Shown here one piece after another: positions 28,220 through 54,390 of a stretch of 64,000 bases of DNA. The stretch comes from Thermoproteota archaeon (lineage in GTDB: Archaea; Korarchaeota; Korarchaeia; B14-G2). The DNA is taken from contig JAVCBW010000008.1 of NCBI GenBank assembly GCA_037917675.1, forward strand, positions 1 through 64,000. Reading direction: 5' to 3'. The position numbers and the translations under genes were made by a program. Every line of letters begins with the position of its first letter. Within the stretch, counting starts at the first letter, position 1. Under the pieces are notes generated by a model. The model saw only the letters and a list, made by a program, of their open reading frames with translations, searched no databases and was not told the origin of the DNA.

Positions 28220-28855
28220 CCAGATGCTGTCGACGACCTCTAGAGCAGCCTTTACGCCGCTCTCGCATGCTCTGGCCTGAAGTATCAGGTTAGGCTCCCA
28301 GGGTGAGACAGAGAGTGCTAGCACTCTTCCATCTGAGAGTGCTTTAGCAGCTCCACTTGAAAGCAGCACTCTAAGCCCATCAACTCTCCTATCAGACCAT
28401 GCGACAACACCCTGCCCAGCTTCAAGCAGCCCTTCACTAGGTGCTCTAGCCTCAAGCCTCGAGGCAAGCCTATAGCTCCTTGAAGCTGCCTCCAGCCTAG
28501 CCCTAGGCTTGCTCTTCAAGTTCGCCTTGATAATGACCTTGTCAACCTCGCCTAGAGCAAGCTGAATAGGGTAGTGTACTGGGTTCTCTCTGTCTAGCAG
28601 CAGGAGGTCTAGCTCTAGCCTATGAGGCACTCTACTCTTAGGTTTTGCTGCCAGTATCCTGAAGCCGCTTGAGCCAAGCGGCATGAAGCTGAAGCTCTCA
28701 TATCTCTTAGCCAGCTCAGCTCTTATATGCCTCCATACCCTCCTCTGAAGCCTCCTATTCCAGAGCTTGCCTAGGAAGTAGTAGAGCACAAAGGCTACTG
28801 ATATAGCTATGATGAGCTGTAGAGGCGTCATCAGATCTCTACTCCAGGCCTCCAC
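28199..28855 (-). CDS. Single-pass membrane-anchored protein, last gene of the cstA-ATPase cluster (possibly DUF1682/CCDC47-like)
   Basis: N-terminal TM helix followed by YFLGKLWNRRL; overlaps the upstream ATPase stop. Confidence 0.7.
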   Translation of the reverse strand: MEAWSRDLMTPLQLIIAISVAFVLYYFLGKLWNRRLQRRVWRHIRAELAKRYESFSFMPLGSSGFRILAAKPKSRVPHRLELDLLLLDRENPVHYPIQLALGEVDKVIIKANLKSKPRARLEAASRSYRLASRLEARAPSEGLLEAGQGVVAWSDRRVDGLRVLLSSGAAKALSDGRVLALSVSPWEPNLILQARACESGVKAALEVVDSIWLEDWSK

Positions 28856-29856
28856 TTCATCATGTCTTCAGCTAGCTTAGCTACCATCTTCACTCCAATG
28901 ATCTCACTCTCATATAGTGGTATCATAGACCTGACCAGAGGCCATAGGTCTCTCCTTATCAGCTCCATGTACCCCTCCTGCTCCATATACTTGTTCACCA
29001 GGTAGTCTTCTGCTCCCTCCCTCATGGCGAGAGCCTTTGAGAGCACGCCATTCACGAACACGCCGCCAACTGGTATGTCAAATCCCTTCACCATGTTGAT
29101 GAACCTCTTTACCACTGAGATCGGGAGCGCGAGAGGTAGCGTGACGAAGAAGAAGGCTGTCTTATCAGGGTTGTTGAACACCTTTTTGGCTTCTTTGATC
29201 CTCTCTCTCATATCCATGAGGTCTCTCATCATGGGGTCCTTCCTGATCTCCTCCATGACCTTCTCCTTCCTAAAGGACAGCTTGACTCTGAGTGATAGTG
29301 CTTCTTCTCTGCTCTTTATCATCCTGTCAAGCCAGAGGTCATATATCTTGCTCAGCCCGAGGAGCCTCACTGCATTAGCTACAGCAGCACAGTCAAAGAC
29401 TATCTTATCATAGTTCTCCCCCTCCTTAAGCATGATGTCAATCATGTTGTCAAACATAGCTGACTCCTCGAAGGCTGGGTTTGTGGCTGCTATCTCGATG
29501 AATGGCTCAGCTTTAACCGGGATGTCAGCCCACTTCAGGAACCACCTGAGCCTCTCAGCTAGCTGCTTCTTGTATGCCTTAACCCTGTCCTTTATGTCGA
29601 CCTCTATGGCATACAGGTTCTTGACGCCTTCCACCGGCTTTACAACACCACCCCAGAGCTCCTGCTCAAACAGGCTGGAGAGGGAGTGCACTGGGTTAAG
29701 TGAGGCGAGGAGAGTCTTCTCGCCGCTCTCAGCGAAGTGGTATGCGAGCCCAGCTGCACACACTGTCTTTCCTACGCCTCCCTTCCCTCCTGTGAAGAGG
29801 AACTTCAAGCGTGGCTTTGAAGCCAGGTAGTCAGCTAGCGGGACAGGCTCACTCAA
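28831..29856 (-). CDS. ArsA/Get3-family ATPase, degenerate copy
   Basis: GGKGGVGKT intact. Switch I reads SLNPVHSL (usually STDPAHSL) and switch II reads DCAAVAN (usually DTAPTGH). Confidence 0.9.
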   Translation of the reverse strand: MSEPVPLADYLASKPRLKFLFTGGKGGVGKTVCAAGLAYHFAESGEKTLLASLNPVHSLSSLFEQELWGGVVKPVEGVKNLYAIEVDIKDRVKAYKKQLAERLRWFLKWADIPVKAEPFIEIAATNPAFEESAMFDNMIDIMLKEGENYDKIVFDCAAVANAVRLLGLSKIYDLWLDRMIKSREEALSLRVKLSFRKEKVMEEIRKDPMMRDLMDMRERIKEAKKVFNNPDKTAFFFVTLPLALPISVVKRFINMVKGFDIPVGGVFVNGVLSKALAMREGAEDYLVNKYMEQEGYMELIRRDLWPLVRSMIPLYESEIIGVKMVAKLAEDMMKWRPGVEI

Positions 29857-30866
29857 GCCACATCAACCTCCCAAGGCTTCTCAAACATGTGTTCAGCTAC
29901 CTTAGCTATCATCTCAAGCCCCTTAGGCTCCCTATCGAACATAGGGACAAGAGCTCTGATGTACTTCTCGAACTTCCCCCAGATCACCTCCATATACTTC
30001 TGCTGCATCTCAACTCTGTTTCTGAGGAATGTACTTATGTTCGGGTTCTTGAGGAGTGAAGGTGGATAGATCTGGTTCACAACTATTCCACTGAGCTTTA
30101 TGTCCAGCTTATCGAACATCTCTAGAGCTCGCTCAGTGTCCAGTATGGCCATCTTCTCAGGTATGATCACCATGAAGAAAGCGCAAGTCTTCGGGTTCGT
30201 CAGTGTCTCCCTGAAGAAGTCTAGCTTCCCTCTGATGTTTCTCAGCTCAACCAGAACCTCGTCTTCAGCTCTAGCTGAGAGCCCTCTGAGCCTAGCTACA
30301 GCCTCCTCGTATTCAGCTGCCCTCTTCCTAGTCTCCTCCATCTTATCTATCCAGGCATCGAGTATCTGAGCCATCGAGATCATCCTGACTCCATGCCCGA
30401 AGGGAGGCATGTCAAATATGTAGATGTCATATTCGCCTTTAGCTAGGAGCTCAGCCATGGCATCGTATGTAGCTGACTCGTGCATAGCTGGCTCGGCAGC
30501 AGCTGTCTTTATGTACTCATCTATCTCAGCTGGGATCTCCTCTACCTTGTAGAGCTCCTTGATCTTAGCTCTGACTTCCTCCTGGAACTCAGCTATCCTC
30601 CTGTCAGCATCTATCTCAACTACATAGAGGCTTGGAGCAACCTCTATGACGCCTCTACCGAAGATATCTCTCTCGAATATGTCGCTAAGCGAGGCCTGTG
30701 GGTCTGTGCTGAAGCATAGCGGCCTCTTGCCTCTCTTAGAGAACCAGTATGCTGTTGCGGCGCTAGCTGTAGTCTTCCCAAGCCCACCCTTACCAGCATA
30801 CACCACTATCCTCAGCTCAGGATTCTCCTCAAAGAAGTCCTTAAGAGACTTAGGCATGGCAGCCAC
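29853..30866 (-). CDS. ArsA/Get3-family ATPase
   Basis: AGKGGLGKTT, STDPQASLSD, FDMPPFGH, V.IPEKMAILDTER, VVNQI. Confidence 0.92.
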   Translation of the reverse strand: MAAMPKSLKDFFEENPELRIVVYAGKGGLGKTTASAATAYWFSKRGKRPLCFSTDPQASLSDIFERDIFGRGVIEVAPSLYVVEIDADRRIAEFQEEVRAKIKELYKVEEIPAEIDEYIKTAAAEPAMHESATYDAMAELLAKGEYDIYIFDMPPFGHGVRMISMAQILDAWIDKMEETRKRAAEYEEAVARLRGLSARAEDEVLVELRNIRGKLDFFRETLTNPKTCAFFMVIIPEKMAILDTERALEMFDKLDIKLSGIVVNQIYPPSLLKNPNISTFLRNRVEMQQKYMEVIWGKFEKYIRALVPMFDREPKGLEMIAKVAEHMFEKPWEVDVA

Positions 30867-31178
30867 CTAGTATAGTAGGTCAGTGACGTCACGCTCACGG
30901 AACAAGCTTCTCTTCCAGGTCTTAATGTGCGGTATAGCATATGGCAGCAGCTTCAGTGAGTAGTATGGTGGCAGTATTGGGAACCCAAGCATATCTCCTA
31001 GCGTTATCAGCATAAAGAGGTGCTCAAGGTACATCCTGGTCTTCAGCATGTATCTTACCATCCCGTGAGAAGCCATGCCATAGAATATCCCCTTGATAGC
31101 CTCTTTAGCCTCCTCCTTAAGGCTTTCTCTCTTCTTAACCTCCTCCTCCTTGCTCTTCTTAAGCATAGGATCCCCCAA
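30867..31178 (-). CDS. Small hydrophobic CstA/ArsA-associated protein (cory-CC-star-like)
   Basis: EHLFMLITLGDMLGFPILPPYYSLKLLPY; lies between cstA and the ATPases. Confidence 0.75.
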   Translation of the reverse strand: MGDPMLKKSKEEEVKKRESLKEEAKEAIKGIFYGMASHGMVRYMLKTRMYLEHLFMLITLGDMLGFPILPPYYSLKLLPYAIPHIKTWKRSLFRERDVTDLLY

Positions 31179-31226: not shown

Positions 31227-32909
31227 TTAGCTGGCTGCCTTAGCCTTCCTATAGGATCTGAAGGCATCTATGGCGACTACTAGGCCTAGTATGAACAGCA
31301 CTATCCCAACTACTCCGAATATGGCATTTAGGGCTTTAGCAGCCAGCGTTCCAGCCTTCATTGGAGGCCTGACTAGCTGCCCCATCTTCAGGAAGAAGTC
31401 CTTCGTCTCCCATAGCAGAGCTGCTTCACACGTAACTATCATGAAGAGCGCTGGACCCAGGGTATATATTGTCGGCTTCTTGACTCTAGCCAAGTATATC
31501 GTGACCAGTGTGAGAGCTAGCCCAGCTAGCAGCTGGTTTGAGCCACCGAACAGCAGCCATAGGTTGATCCAGGCTCCAGTGTAAGCAAATACCCCTGCTA
31601 CCAAGAGCCCTACTATGGTGCCACCCCACTTTCCACCTAGTGTGGCCTTCAATGGTGGTATTCCACTCGTGACCTCGCCGAGTGTCAGCCAGAAGAACCT
31701 TATGGCTATCATGGCTATTGTGAGCGCGTAGAGCTCAAGCCACATGCCATAGAATGCCTCTATGTAGGGTTCTCCGCCTGTTATCGGTGCTATGAGCTTC
31801 TTCGCGCCACAGACTAGGCAAGCCCAATTTACACCACCTAGCTTCTCGATCTCAGCTGGAGTTAAGACCATGTATGCTGCCAGCGACATCAAAGCTAGGA
31901 GGCCCTCAGTCAGCATTGCACCTCCACCTACTGGTAAGGCATCTGTCTCAACATCGAGCTGTGAGGCTGAGCCTGAAGTGCTTATCAGGCTGTGCCACCC
32001 TGATATCGCCCCACATGCTATAGAAACTGTCAGGAGAGGCCATAGTGGCCCCGCCTTAGCCATGAAGCCGAGGTAGCCTGGCTGCTCGATCCTCACACCT
32101 GTAGCTGGAGACGCTAATGCAGCGATGAACAGCAGCAGTATCCCGAATATAGCTGGGAAGGAGGCTACATAGACTACTGGCTGAGTGACCCACATTAGTG
32201 GGGCGACAGCTGCTATGAAGAGTATGGCTGCTGTAAAGACCATCCAGAGAACTAGGCTCGGGTGCTTTATTGGAACCTTTACTCCAAGCACTACGCCTAT
32301 TACTGTTATGATCAGCCCTACTAGCGTGGAGGTTGCGACTCCCCACTTAGCTTTGTAGAGGAGGACTCCACTGATCACTCCACCTATCACTAGGAAGACC
32401 ATTGCTAGGACTGAAGCAGGGAAGACCTTGAAGAACAGCGAGCAGAGGACCATAAAGACTGCTATGATCAGGATGAGGTAGAACACGAGGAAGCCTAAGA
32501 GCGCCCTCCTAGCTCTTGGGCTTATCAGCTCATAGCTGAGTGGCCCCATCGTCTTGCCTTCATTTCTCACTGAGAGCATCAGGGAGCTGTAGTCGTGTAT
32601 CCACCCTATGAAGAAGTTGCCTAGGAGTATCCATATGAGGGCTGGAACCCACCCATACATCAGTGCTATGAATGGGCCTAGTATTGGTCCTAGGCCAGCT
32701 ATCCCCTTGAACTGGAATCCATATAGCACGTACTTGCTGACTGGGAAGAACGTTATTCCATCCATGTAAGTGTGAGCTGGAGTAGGCTTCTTCGGGTCAG
32801 GCTCCCATACGCGTCTGTCATACCACTTGGCGTAAGCGAAGTAGGCTAGTGCGTATATTATCACACCTAGGACGACGAACCATATTGGATACATTCTAGC
32901 ACCTACCAC
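31227..32909 (-). CDS. cstA: Carbon starvation protein CstA-family transporter
   Basis: PTPAH..MDG..F.P, L.G.QF..IAG.GPILGP, WPLL..SIACGAISGWHSL, GAMLTEG, W.LFG.SNQLLA. Confidence 0.93.
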   Translation of the reverse strand: MVGARMYPIWFVVLGVIIYALAYFAYAKWYDRRVWEPDPKKPTPAHTYMDGITFFPVSKYVLYGFQFKGIAGLGPILGPFIALMYGWVPALIWILLGNFFIGWIHDYSSLMLSVRNEGKTMGPLSYELISPRARRALLGFLVFYLILIIAVFMVLCSLFFKVFPASVLAMVFLVIGGVISGVLLYKAKWGVATSTLVGLIITVIGVVLGVKVPIKHPSLVLWMVFTAAILFIAAVAPLMWVTQPVVYVASFPAIFGILLLFIAALASPATGVRIEQPGYLGFMAKAGPLWPLLTVSIACGAISGWHSLISTSGSASQLDVETDALPVGGGAMLTEGLLALMSLAAYMVLTPAEIEKLGGVNWACLVCGAKKLIAPITGGEPYIEAFYGMWLELYALTIAMIAIRFFWLTLGEVTSGIPPLKATLGGKWGGTIVGLLVAGVFAYTGAWINLWLLFGGSNQLLAGLALTLVTIYLARVKKPTIYTLGPALFMIVTCEAALLWETKDFFLKMGQLVRPPMKAGTLAAKALNAIFGVVGIVLFILGLVVAIDAFRSYRKAKAAS

Positions 32910-33006: not shown

Positions 33007-33516
33007 CTAGTGGCATGTGATAGAGGTGAGGAGTTCAAGTATCTCATGCAGACAGCTATCTACGTGGTCTGGAGCCCCCTCGACAGCTAGCCTCATGGTA
33101 CGCTTGGTTTCATGGCAGTACAGCACCATTTTGACCTCCATTCTCCTTCCTCCAAAGAGGCTCTTAGCTTCTCTCACAGCATAGTATGCCCTATGTCCTC
33201 CTACCATGGCCTCGCTTATACTCTCCACACCTACACCGAGGCTTCTTGCAGCTCTCCTCCTAGTTAGATCCCTACTAGATCTCCTAGCTCTGATCTCGAA
33301 CCTCAGAGGCTTCCTCCTGCCGGCATAGAGGTCTAGGATTATATAGCCGCTGGCAGCCCACCTCATCCCCTGGTGCTCAGTGTACTCCTCGACATCAGGA
33401 GGATAGGGGGTGGGCCTTATAGCCCATCCCTCAGGCAGCTTGAACTTAGCGAACACACATTCTCCTAGCACAATGTTCCTAGCCCACACTGTTGACTCCA
33501 AGCATACTACCTCCAA
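33007..33516 (-). CDS. Hypothetical protein upstream of cstA, ending in TCH
   Basis: 169-aa ORF filling the gap, TTG start, host-like codon usage. Confidence 0.6.
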   Translation of the reverse strand: MEVVCLESTVWARNIVLGECVFAKFKLPEGWAIRPTPYPPDVEEYTEHQGMRWAASGYIILDLYAGRRKPLRFEIRARRSSRDLTRRRAARSLGVGVESISEAMVGGHRAYYAVREAKSLFGGRRMEVKMVLYCHETKRTMRLAVEGAPDHVDSCLHEILELLTSITCH

Positions 33517-33577: not shown

Positions 33578-33832
33578 GTGTTGAGGGGGCTTAAGAGGAA
33601 GATCAGGGAGCTCCTTTTCGGGTTCCTTGTCTTAGAGCCTGTTAAGACTCTGGAGAAGGCTAAGTTCAGAGAGGAGTGTGCTATGATGACTGCTACGCTA
33701 GGAGACATGCTTGGGATCCCATTCACACCTCCAATCTACAGGCTGAGGCTTCTCGCAGCCTGGGCTCCACTAGTTGGGCTCTGGAAGAGGGAGGTTTTCA
33801 GAGAGAAGGACATAGTCGAGAGGCTAGAGTAG
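33578..33832 (+). CDS. Second small CstA/ArsA-associated protein, paralog of 30867-31178
   Basis: TLGDMLGIPFTPPIYRLRLL...WKREVFREKDI aligns with TLGDMLGFPILPPYYSLKLL...WKRSLFRERDV. Confidence 0.8.
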   Translation: MLRGLKRKIRELLFGFLVLEPVKTLEKAKFREECAMMTATLGDMLGIPFTPPIYRLRLLAAWAPLVGLWKREVFREKDIVERLE

Positions 33833-53029: not shown

Positions 53030-53129
53030 TTTCACACACCCTGCTAGAGCCTCACATGGCGTTAATGAGTACCCCTCCATGCAGGGAGAAGGATTTAAGC
53101 TTATAGATTTCATGTCTTTAAGCTAATGT

Positions 53130-53195
53130 CTATCTGGGCTTAGACAGGTCTAAGTAGTTCATAAAGAACTTATAAAAGCTTACGCCGCTCCTCAA
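53130..53195 (-). pseudogene. Truncated 5' fragment of a second cyoE-like gene
   Basis: MRSGVSFYKFFMNYLDLSKPR* matches the cyoE N-terminus YLNLSKPRQ; GGTGA RBS upstream. Confidence 0.55.
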
Positions 53196-53979
53196 TGCAT
53201 CACCAAACTCCTTTGCAAGCAAAAGCGCTATATCCTTAATTTCCTCCTTTATTTCTTCTTATGGAGCTCTTTTCTTCGAGTTAGATGCTAAATGCCTGAT
53301 TTTGAGAGGAAGTGGATGACAGTCTACGAGTTTGCTTCTCTTTTCTCAGGAATCACCATAGCATATTTCAGCTACGTCTCTTATAAGATCACTAGGGCTC
53401 CTCTACTATCCTACCCTTAGCTTGCATATAGAACAGGTAATCCTTCTCACATAATTAGTTAAGTGAGATACCTATAGTTGTTTTGAGAGTTGATGCAATA
53501 ATTGATGGTGAAGAGTTACCGATTGGGCTGAAAAAGCTGTTAGTCCAACTCTCAAAACATCCTTATATACCCTGAAATGCCTGCAATTACCAAATCTAAA
53601 GAAGCCATTGAGTATAAGTTGGGTCTTATGAATCTAAGTCCTTACAAGGAGACCTTGAAAGAAGGAGATATCGTGGATAATTAAAGTATAAGACCATTGA
53701 GGAAGAGCCAGAAGAATGCAAATATGGTTGAAGATATGGAAGCACTGGGAAAGAGACATCGAATAAGATAGGCTCATGTCTTGAGTTCTGTTAAAAAGGC
53801 TAGATCAACGGCTCAGGTGCTCTTACTCCTAGGGTTGGGCGTCCTGTGTGCTCAATAACAGGAAGTCTATTACTCAACATCCTGATGCCTCGCTAGCAGC
53901 CAGAAAAGTCCTAACTTTCTCCCCTTTGCAAGTGACTGTAAGCGAAAGGGGGATAAATTTCTCTCCGCTAAGGAAGCCT

Positions 53980-54390
53980 ATGCCTAAATGTAAGGTTAAA
54001 ATACAAGTGCCAGAGAGGCGCTTACTGTCTTCTGCATATTCCACGACCCAGATCTCTGGAAGGAGAAGCCAGAAGAGGCCGTAGAAGAGCTTCACAGGGA
54101 GCTCCTAGAGGGGATTGAAAGGAAGAGAAAGCTCGACTTCATAGGCTGTAACCTTCCGTGGGTAGACCTTTCCTCGAAGAAGGCACAGGAGCTAGGGTTC
54201 AAGAGGTTCAAACCTCTGAAAAAAGACTCTTAAATGCAAGGTTCCACGGTCTCTTTGAAGCGTCAGGAACTTTGTTTAGAGGGAGACACATACTTCCGAG
54301 GGGCTGAGTTCAAGCGGCTTCCACGCTTTTGCCTTACTCTCTCCTGCCATCTGTCTCCTCTGTATAAGCGCCTTTTCAGCGAGAGCCCTT
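53980..54390 (+). pseudogene. Decayed pentapeptide-repeat protein
   Basis: Pieces in different frames: MPKCK, FCIFHDPDLWKEKPEE...LDFIGCNLP.VDLS, NARFHG, GDTYFRGAEF. Confidence 0.55.

Follow-up and report, generated by a model that had tools for sequence, protein, structure and literature searches.

The subject of this investigation is a pair of adjacent genes in a 64,000-nucleotide stretch of DNA from a Thermoproteota archaeon placed in the Korarchaeota (GenBank assembly GCA_037917675.1, contig JAVCBW010000008.1, positions 1 to 64,000), hereafter referred to as the window. The genes lie on the minus strand and encode two ATPases of the ArsA/Get3 family, designated ATPase 1 and ATPase 2, the second of which carries an asparagine in place of the catalytic aspartate of switch I. 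Listed below are the two open reading frames (ORFs) and their nucleotide-binding motifs.

29853-30866, minus strand: ATPase 1, Asp-type ArsA/Get3-family ATPase, ORF of 337 amino acids
30771-30794, minus strand: ATPase 1 Walker A, GKGGLGKT
30687-30710, minus strand: ATPase 1 switch I, STDPQASL, with the catalytic Asp55 at 30702-30704
30393-30413, minus strand: ATPase 1 switch II, DMPPFGH
28831-29856, minus strand: ATPase 2, Asn-type paralog, ORF of 341 amino acids
29764-29787, minus strand: ATPase 2 Walker A, GKGGVGKT
29680-29703, minus strand: ATPase 2 switch I, SLNPVHSL, with Asn54 (codon AAC) at 29695-29697
29374-29394, minus strand: ATPase 2 switch II, DCAAVAN

The two ORFs share 4 bp, and the junction between them reads GCTTGAGTG. 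ATPase 2 has a single in-frame start codon, a TTG, which overlaps with the TGA stop codon of ATPase 1, and the sequence GGAGGT is positioned 9 nt upstream of it. This arrangement suggests that the translation of the two proteins may be coupled. The amino acid sequences are 31% identical (104/337 residues, E 5e-52). In HMMER alignments with three solved structures (the archaeal Get3 proteins 3ug6 and 3zq6, and the algal ArsA1 5zme), the ATPase 2 segment "aslnpvhsls" falls under "vstdpahsls" and the segment "fdcaavana" under "fdtaptght". Because both motifs are superposed in these structure alignments, the Asn of ATPase 2 is assigned to the switch I Asp position. The CEFC motif of 3zq6 aligns with STFL in ATPase 1 and with AEDY in ATPase 2, and thus the zinc-binding CxxC is absent from both. 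An earlier note on this DNA, made from the letters alone, had described the switch motifs of both ATPases and the Walker A motif of ATPase 2, a 4-bp gene overlap, and the lack of the Get3 zinc CxxC in either copy, and all of these are borne out by the ORF coordinates, the junction, and the alignments.

Against the Pfam profile PF02374 (curated cut-off 24.3), ATPase 1 and ATPase 2 score 223.4 and 180 bits, respectively, and against TIGR00345 (cut-off 135) they score 212.9 and 184.9 bits. To judge from these values, the ATPase pair is not a chance feature. A deviant Walker A motif with the signature lysine, xKGGxGK[ST], is present in both proteins and in all 37 sequences of each family alignment (see below). 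The catalytic Asp of switch I (S-T-D-P) is kept in ATPase 1 (D55, 37/37) whereas it is replaced in ATPase 2 (N54, 37/37). The DTAPTGH signature of switch II is found in neither. The ATPase 1 version, D-M/L-x-P-x-G-H, keeps the D, P, G, and H of the signature, and the ATPase 2 family displays D-T/C-A-A/P-V/T-A-N/H, from which the Gly is gone in 37/37. Since the profile scores pass the cut-offs despite the missing switch I Asp, ATPase 2 is best described, at the level of sequence, as a catalytically divergent member of the ArsA/Get3 family.

With the archaeal Get3 structures 3zq6 and 3ug6, the alignments run end-to-end and include the helical insert; the E-values are 7.8e-56 and 2.4e-52 for ATPase 1, and 1.1e-39 and 6.5e-40 for ATPase 2. 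The helical subdomain regions contain 88-91 and 73 residues with a hydrophobic fraction of 0.43-0.45, and match those of Asp-type single-domain relatives. As a discriminator for client binding, the composition of these regions proved uninformative, given that it is the same in the Asp-type relatives.

Conservation and history of the ATPase pair

The conservation of the Asn was followed in two samples. The related-genome set contains 41 genomes, 18 of which encode an ATPase 2 ortholog at 54-93% identity. For the wider sample, a one-genome-per-species collection was searched with an alignment of CstX, a small protein encoded directly upstream of ATPase 1. At least 610 confirmed relatives were obtained, and 78 of the 610 were taken as loci, 50 archaeal and 28 bacterial as judged by record title. 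The archaeal loci include those from Thermoproteota, Bathyarchaeia, Thor- and other Asgard archaea, Thermoplasmata, Methanobacteriota, Nitrososphaeria, and Methanoperedens; the bacterial loci include those from Chloroflexota, Symbiobacteriaceae, other Bacillota, and Syntrophobacterales. Both ATPase types were recognized by motif in 66 of the 78 loci, and L080 is a further one. The rest comprise 10 loci that end at a contig boundary and a Thorarchaeota locus (L075) with the CstX gene alone.

According to the earlier note, orthologs that mostly carry Asp would have pointed to recent decay of ATPase 2, and the conservation of the switch II change was likewise left for an alignment to decide. The outcome is clear. 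Switch I reads S[L/T]NPVHSL in all 18 orthologs of the related genomes, and the upstream ATPase 1 displays STDPQASL in each of its 17 full copies, the 18th (G017) being broken by a contig start. All 67 of the partner ATPases detected across the 78 loci contain the Asn, and none was seen with an Asp. The two residues are one transition apart, and no reversion was observed in these loci. The prediction of a mostly Asp-bearing family thus fails.

Family alignments of 37 sequences each, from both archaea and bacteria, were prepared for the two ATPases. The invariant residues (37/37) are K26, K31, T32, D55, D152, P155, G157, H158, and N264 in ATPase 1, and K25, K30, T31, N54, D155, A157, A160, and N269 in ATPase 2. 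There is no invariant Cys in either family. The ATPase 2 switch II change is conserved as well, with Gly replaced by Ala in 37/37 and the His replaced in 23/37. ATPase 2 retains the Walker A motif, the Walker B Asp, the switch I His57, and the A-loop Asn. In ATPase 1, it is the switch I His that has been replaced (DPQAS versus DPAHS), and this too is invariant in the 37 sequences. Because K25, K30, T31, D155, and N269 are invariant, ATPase 2 keeps what is required for the binding of ATP-Mg, and its replacements of the catalytic Asp and of the switch II Gly are fixed. A search of 1.84 billion cluster representatives gave one exception among the full-length Asn-clade members, namely P0122 (SLSTLHSL); all others contain the Asn.

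Two departures from the general pattern may be recorded here. In the ATPase 1 ortholog at L080:6325-7299 (an Anaerolineae record), which is not among the 37 aligned sequences, the Walker A motif reads GAGGLGKT and the signature Lys is gone, a single case among 67; in the deviant-Walker-A class this Lys reaches the nucleotide site of the partner, and its loss in L080 fits a non-catalytic partner site. In addition, at least two two-domain proteins outside of the Asn clade, P0138 and P0223, have an Asn at switch I in one half (SVNPAHSL with DMAAGAH, and SINPSHSL, respectively). One-sided degeneration seems to have multiple origins within the superfamily.

A quick maximum-likelihood tree was calculated from 104 rows, namely 74 family sequences, 29 single-domain representatives, and the third paralog encoded in the genome under study. 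The ATPase 1 and ATPase 2 clades have Shimodaira-Hasegawa-like approximate likelihood ratio test (SH-aLRT) supports of 99 and 100, respectively, and the node that joins them as sisters has a value of 98. The internal groupings of the two clades mirror each other, and all remaining single-domain relatives carry Asp. Mean pairwise identity is 0.571 in the ATPase 1 family and 0.568 in the ATPase 2 family, and the identity matrices correlate with r = 0.95. On the basis of the sister clades, the mirrored topology, and the equal identities, the duplication and the Asp to Asn change are old, and the copies have been inherited jointly under equal constraint. The Asn predates the divergence of the archaea and several bacterial phyla.

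The third paralog just mentioned, which sits on a very long branch in the tree, is a 301-residue protein encoded on contig C53 (L002:1498-2403) that contains SDPTPSL, DTAPAGG, and a CNC motif. Its gene adjoins a methyltransferase-like gene, and the protein is a candidate general Get3-like factor apart from the CstA module described below.

Of the 68 loci that could accommodate both genes, 67 have ATPase 1 and ATPase 2 side by side. In a phylum sample of 32 genomes that are at least 80% complete, both are present in 18 and neither in 14 (with ATPase 1 of G017 broken as noted above), and 0/32 genomes had a match at E<=1e-40 without ATPase 2. The transporter CstA occurs in exactly the 18 genomes having the ATPase pair; this pattern varies within three genera, and the related genomes are not independent observations. 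The asymmetry of the two sequences is ancient, and the copies are co-inherited with each other and with CstA.

A natural fusion of the two proteins was also sought. Twelve longer matches were obtained. The closest three, with 48-53% identity, are gene calls with garbled reading frames in high-GC (guanine plus cytosine) bacteria, and the other nine (24-28% identity) are ordinary two-domain ArsA-like proteins.

The CstA gene cluster

The ATPase genes belong to a row on the minus strand that reads, in order, the gene for a 169-residue protein, cstA, cstX, ATPase 1, ATPase 2, and cstY. The other members of the row, together with a gene on the opposite strand, are as follows.

33007-33516, minus strand: 169-residue soluble protein, first gene of the minus-strand row
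31227-32909, minus strand: CstA-family transporter, 560 residues (PF02554, E 1.7e-97)
30867-31178, minus strand: CstX (DUF7990/PF25952), likely start ATG at 31166, 99 residues
28199-28855, minus strand: CstY, 218 residues, with one N-terminal membrane helix by hydropathy and a cytoplasmic alpha/beta domain
33578-33832, plus strand: second, divergent CstX paralog, 84 residues, 36% identical to CstX

With lengths of 337 and 341 residues and a row shared with cstA, cstX, and cstY, the pair corresponds to the CstA-associated ArsA homologs of Castillo and Saier (2010). The CstA protein is 29% identical to E. coli CstA (E 8e-46) and is present in a single copy in this genome. Neighboring ORFs of the 78 loci and of the window (79 loci in all) were clustered by BLAST. 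The CstA family is found in 58 of the 79 loci, the CstX family in 65 (frequently as two copies), the CstY family (~210 residues with a single N-terminal membrane helix) in 36, and the family of the 169-residue protein (~167 residues) in 23. Gene order shifts between lineages; CstA, CstX, CstY, and the 169-residue protein remain nearby. One further ORF "family" consisted of antisense ORFs of high-GC bacteria and was set aside. A thioredoxin-like CxxC protein of ~125 residues, for which the Pfam matches are sub-threshold, is encoded in 19 of the 79 loci. Examples are provided by L031:8613-8978, L078:6249-6629, and L106:2466-2858, with 16 further loci, and the CxxC is N-terminal. With one protein query, such a gene was not found in the genome under study, which is 92.7% complete. 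A small CxxC protein of this type recalls the ArsD-ArsA pairing, and no match to ArsD was obtained in Pfam.

CstX carries the label PF25952 (precomputed) and is listed as DUF7990 in the ESM Atlas. In related loci its gene lies directly upstream of that for ATPase 1. Its hydrophobic core, LFMLITLGDMLGFPILPPYYSLKLLPY, shows ~65-85% identity across archaeal phyla. A relationship to E. coli YbdD, the small protein encoded beside E. coli cstA, was considered and rejected (hhalign probability 0.5%), and the match to the NCBIfam "cory-CC-star protein" is weak (28.3 bits versus a cut-off of 80). No mention of PF25952, NF041419, or cory-CC-star was found in the literature searched. The second CstX (33578-33832) belongs to the same BLAST family and shares GDMLG.P..PP.Y and WK with the first; it is transcribed divergently from the cluster, and many related loci carry tandem CstX pairs. 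It is a possibility that a CstX heteropair matches the ATPase heteropair.

A complex of ATPase 1, ATPase 2, and CstX was predicted with the family alignments and without nucleotide, and only CstX was scored. CstX attained a score of 0.66, as compared to 0.15 for the best of three controls. Of 80 solved complexes, 58 attained the score mark, as did 2 of 110 mismatched pairs; for a job of this kind, these counts are only rough. The contact agreement between runs was at least 65%, and the predicted local distance difference test (pLDDT) score of the partner was at least 62. In the model, residues 39-83 of CstX, which form the conserved core, contact residues 94-132 and 158-214 of ATPase 1, and residues 99-136 and 161-179 of ATPase 2. 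The contacted regions are the helical subdomains that flank switch II, where Get3 holds its clients. When ATPase 2 was swapped for an unrelated protein, the CstX score fell from 0.66 to 0.15. As predicted, then, the core of CstX would sit in a groove built by both ATPases.

The model of CstY has a pLDDT of 93.2. A Foldseek search gave a match to 7tm3_4 (E 1.2e-8), and with VIA-align CstY superimposes onto chain 4 of 7tm3, a multipass translocon, with a Z score of 16.2 and a root-mean-square deviation of 2.8 Å for 205 residues (chain residues 135-398). Other superpositions are with 9i78 chain 4 (Z 14.0), TtfA from 6t84 (Z 11.0), and 6w6l chain 7 (Z 9.8); the next have Z < 8. In keeping with a Pfam result, 7tm3 chain 4, 9i78 chain 4, and 6w6l chain 7 are taken to be CCDC47. 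The Pfam profile for CCDC47, PF07946, is matched at E<=1 by 16 of 34 members of the CstY family, with a best value of 2.8e-7, and the CstY of the window scores 15.1 bits against a cut-off of 27.7. Its ESM Atlas feature score to a CCDC47 cluster is 0.79 (rank 22). Judging from these models, the fold of CstY is like that of CCDC47 and TtfA.

The model of the 169-residue protein (pLDDT 93.5) displays a PsbP/Mog1-like fold, and Foldseek matches include PsbP, Mog1, Tsi3, and Eag-type chaperones with template modeling (TM) scores of ~0.5. Invariant in the family are His108, Cys134, Cys168, and the C-terminal His169, which resemble a metal site. The Eag chaperones, which share this fold type, bind membrane helices.

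Elsewhere in the window, a region of ~1.3 kb at 53114-54388 is devoid of ORFs of at least 80 residues and has the lowest GC content of the window (0.42 versus ~0.51). The repeats in it are confined to one inverted repeat of 14 nt and two direct repeats, both short and imperfect. The window as a whole, this region included, was scanned for Rfam families and tRNAs, and no match was obtained.

Models for the function of the pair

The model that we favor, with a probability of roughly 0.6, is that ATPase 1 and ATPase 2 form an obligate heterodimer with one hydrolytic site, which serves as the cytoplasmic motor of a CstA-CstX-CstY module. Both subunits would bind ATP, and ATP binding would close the heterodimer. 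Hydrolysis would occur solely at the ATPase 1 site, which contains Asp55. The ATPase 2 site, with Asn54 and the switch II Gly to Ala change, would retain its ATP unsplit and, on that account, would function as a latch or a sensor, such that one ATP would be spent per cycle. The composite helical groove of the closed dimer would hold the hydrophobic core of CstX; hydrolysis would open the groove, and CstX would be released or moved to CstY, with its CCDC47-like fold, and to CstA. We infer that the heterodimer forms, that ATPase 2 binds ATP but does not hydrolyze it, and that CstX is the element that is handled. An obligate heterodimer fits with the adjacency of the genes, their joint presence and absence, their equal rates, and the predicted two-chain groove. 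According to the available text of PMC12506534, Asp 57 of yeast Get3 is catalytic, and the D57N variant binds ATP and adopts a closed dimer without hydrolysis.

The observations that weigh against this model are of several kinds. E. coli CstA, which is annotated as a pyruvate transporter, works without any ATPase. The maximum 19-residue hydropathy of CstX is 1.47, which is marginally hydrophobic. The complex prediction scores CstX only and is silent on the pairing of ATPase 1 with ATPase 2 versus pairing with self; because Get3-client complexes have already been solved, its success may reflect likeness to them; and the job was run with alignments prepared for this work and three chains, unlike the calibration of the tool, and without ATP. 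Asn could, in principle, be compensated for by another residue, and P0122, which lies inside the Asn clade with Ser-Thr at the place of the Asn, implies that the Asn is in principle dispensable. The conservation of both signature lysines is equally compatible with two active sites. Finally, a genuine ATPase 1-ATPase 2 fusion was not found with the query used.

Several other explanations must be considered. The motif change itself, and nothing further, speaks for ATPase 2 as a degenerating duplicate, and this explanation can virtually be discarded: the Asn is universal in archaea and bacteria, ATPases of the Asn type constitute a monophyletic clade of old origin, every complete locus has an intact reading frame, and both the invariance of the nucleotide-binding residues and a rate equal to that of ATPase 1 argue against decay. 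It is very improbable that both sites are active, with Asn54 and a compensating residue carrying out hydrolysis in a functionally symmetric heterodimer whose motif difference serves partner recognition. ATPase 2 does retain its Walker A motif, Walker B Asp, His57, and A-loop Asn, and ATPase 1 is without the canonical switch I His (DPQAS), for which reason the two sites may be composite. Against such activity, the Asp to Asn replacement abolishes hydrolysis in Get3 (D57N), the switch II Gly of ATPase 2 is replaced in 37/37, and the His in 23/37. The same effect of Asp to Asn is known for the deviant-Walker-A ATPases Soj and MinD, and for Asp45 of ArsA. Two separate homodimers, namely a hydrolyzing Get3-like ATPase 1 and, alongside it, an ATP-locked ATPase 2 that acts as a holdase or scaffold, are improbable, if somewhat less so. 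The engineered Get3 D57N gives stable closed dimers, the signature Lys is conserved in both ATPases, no fusion of the two was found, and the characterized single-domain Get3 proteins are homodimers or tetramers (PMC6593721, in its available text). Such homodimers are difficult to reconcile with the strict gene adjacency and start-stop overlap, the identical rates and mirrored trees, the absence from both proteins of the CxxC zinc clasp of known homodimers, and a modeled CstX site that requires both chains (0.66 falling to 0.15 upon replacement of ATPase 2). The joint presence and absence also argues against them, though it fits equally well with two proteins of one pathway.

Quite possible, although unlikely on balance, is an ArsAB-like pump, in which the ATPase, of whatever subunit composition, energizes transport by CstA in each cycle and CstX and CstY are permanent coupling subunits instead of client and receptor, as proposed by Castillo and Saier (2010). 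CstA occurs in the same 18/32 genomes as the ATPase pair, it is single in this genome and clusters with the pair (58/79 loci), the energizing proposal is in print in the available text of PMC2963123, and TtfA, an accessory factor of the transporter MmpL3, has the fold of CstY (Z 11.0). The hallmarks of ArsA are absent, however: the domains are not fused, there is no conserved Cys, and the scores are 87 and 79 bits versus 650. In addition, the nearest solved relatives are archaeal Get3 targeting factors, and CstX is modeled within the groove that Get3 uses for its clients.

Within the favored heterodimer model, CstX could be delivered once, during assembly of the CstA complex, or could couple the ATPases to CstA in every cycle by gating or energizing. 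The Get3-like groove and the CCDC47-like CstY lean toward assembly, and the perfect phyletic coupling to the transporter together with the TtfA precedent lean toward cyclic coupling; one-time delivery is slightly favored. A broader proposal, which we regard as doubtful, sees in the cluster a relative, prokaryotic and dedicated to its client, of the machinery for membrane-protein biogenesis in eukaryotes; in this view, the asymmetric Get3-like heterodimer would capture the tail-anchor-like core of CstX and hand it to CstY as a receptor for assembly with CstA. The module is encoded in Asgard, Thermoproteota, Thermoplasmata, Chloroflexota, and Bacillota records. If the proposal were true, CCDC47 would have prokaryotic roots, its pairing with a Get3-type ATPase would be older than the eukaryotes, and the link would bear on the origin of the insertion machinery of the eukaryotic endoplasmic reticulum.

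Relation to known systems

Neither the gene cluster nor the D/N variation is new to the literature. The same cluster is described in the available text of PMC2963123 (Castillo and Saier, 2010, Int J Microbiol), with single-domain ArsA homologs of ~330 residues encoded beside cstA and cstX (~90 residues), to which archaeal clusters add cstY (~210 residues, single helix); 26 instances are reported, and it is proposed that the ArsA homolog energizes CstA via CstX. That text names Thermococcus kodakarensis (Tko) as one of the organisms with the cst cluster, mentions adjacent pairs of ArsA homologs in two organisms, abbreviated Par and Sth (the latter taken to be Symbiobacterium thermophilum, a species represented by record L094), and states that the D of the SXD motif "can be substituted only by N". 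In its account the ATPase is a generic energizer, the Asn is tied neither to one of two obligate paralogs nor to the catalytic position, a structural reading of CstX or CstY is absent, and the word "heterodimer" occurs 0 times. The literature searched yielded no experimental follow-up, no subsequent paper in which CstX or CstY has this meaning, and no report joining "carbon starvation protein" with Get3. Nor did it yield the asymmetric heterodimer with one engine, the placement of CstX in the groove, or the likeness of CstY to CCDC47, the last two of which are new results. Together they would provide a testable architecture, namely an asymmetric motor, CstX in the groove, and a CCDC47-like partner, for a cluster known as "carbon starvation" since 2010 but lacking a mechanism. 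Many of the at least 610 stretches that encode CstX come from uncultured anaerobes, including Bathyarchaeia, Asgard archaea, and Chloroflexota.

In its predicted fold, CstY resembles CCDC47, which is a component of the PAT complex and of the multipass translocon, and the TtfA of mycobacteria, which the title of its PDB entry presents as an accessory factor of the transporter MmpL3. CstY differs from CCDC47 in that it is shorter (218 residues), prokaryotic, and, for the copy in the window, below the Pfam cut-off. CCDC47 is described as "conserved across eukaryotes" in the available text of PMC7505659, and no mention of a prokaryotic relative was found in the portions of the CCDC47 literature at hand.

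E. coli ArsA (1f48), the ATPase of the ArsAB arsenite pump and a member of the same superfamily, is a pseudo-dimer whose two nucleotide sites are likewise non-equivalent, and its partner is a membrane transporter. It differs in that its two domains are fused and its metalloid site is Cys-based, and there is an Asp in both halves. Against the ArsA equivalog TIGR04291, ATPase 1 and ATPase 2 score 87.3 and 79.1 bits, respectively, far below the cut-off of 650; they are single-domain proteins without an invariant Cys, and their neighbors are cst rather than ars genes. Most two-domain ArsA-like representatives carry TDP in both halves. The resemblance to a split, asymmetric ArsA A1/A2 that the earlier note had drawn is thus a loose one.

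BagA and BagB of M. tuberculosis (Rv3679 and Rv3680; chains A and B of PDB 6bs3), which are also encoded by adjacent Get3-like genes, are very distant from the window pair by both profile and PDB scores. ATPase 1 and ATPase 2 score 40.0 and 42.4 bits with the BagA profile (NF053622, cut-off 400) and 38.4 and 25.3 bits with the BagB profile (NF053621, cut-off 521), and the matches to 6bs3 have E-values of 3.5e-5 and 1.9e-5 over partial length. BagA and BagB are reportedly called "two interacting ATPases" in the title of a 2020 paper by Whitaker et al.

The best solved sequence relatives are the archaeal Get3 proteins from M. thermautotrophicus (3zq6) and M. jannaschii (3ug6), whose helical subdomains are equal in length to those of the window pair. 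Archaeal Get3 is a homo-oligomer encoded by a stand-alone gene, with an Asp at every site and a CxxC clasp (CEFC, CDFC). Unlike it, the window pair consists of two non-equivalent paralogs without the Cys clasp and in a fixed transporter setting. ATPase 2 carries the very substitution used in laboratories to trap Get3. The engineered D57N variant is the laboratory equivalent of the natural change in ATPase 2, but it is artificial, and both of its sites are dead. Heterodimeric ATP-binding cassette (ABC) exporters with one degenerate site, although of a different fold, provide a precedent for one consensus site and one latch site. The textbook picture of an ArsA/Get3 ATPase is that of a two-site motor, symmetric or pseudo-symmetric, and the pair described here would represent a natural, ancient, and widespread version with one site off, and thus a ready-made system for probing the purpose of the second ATP site.

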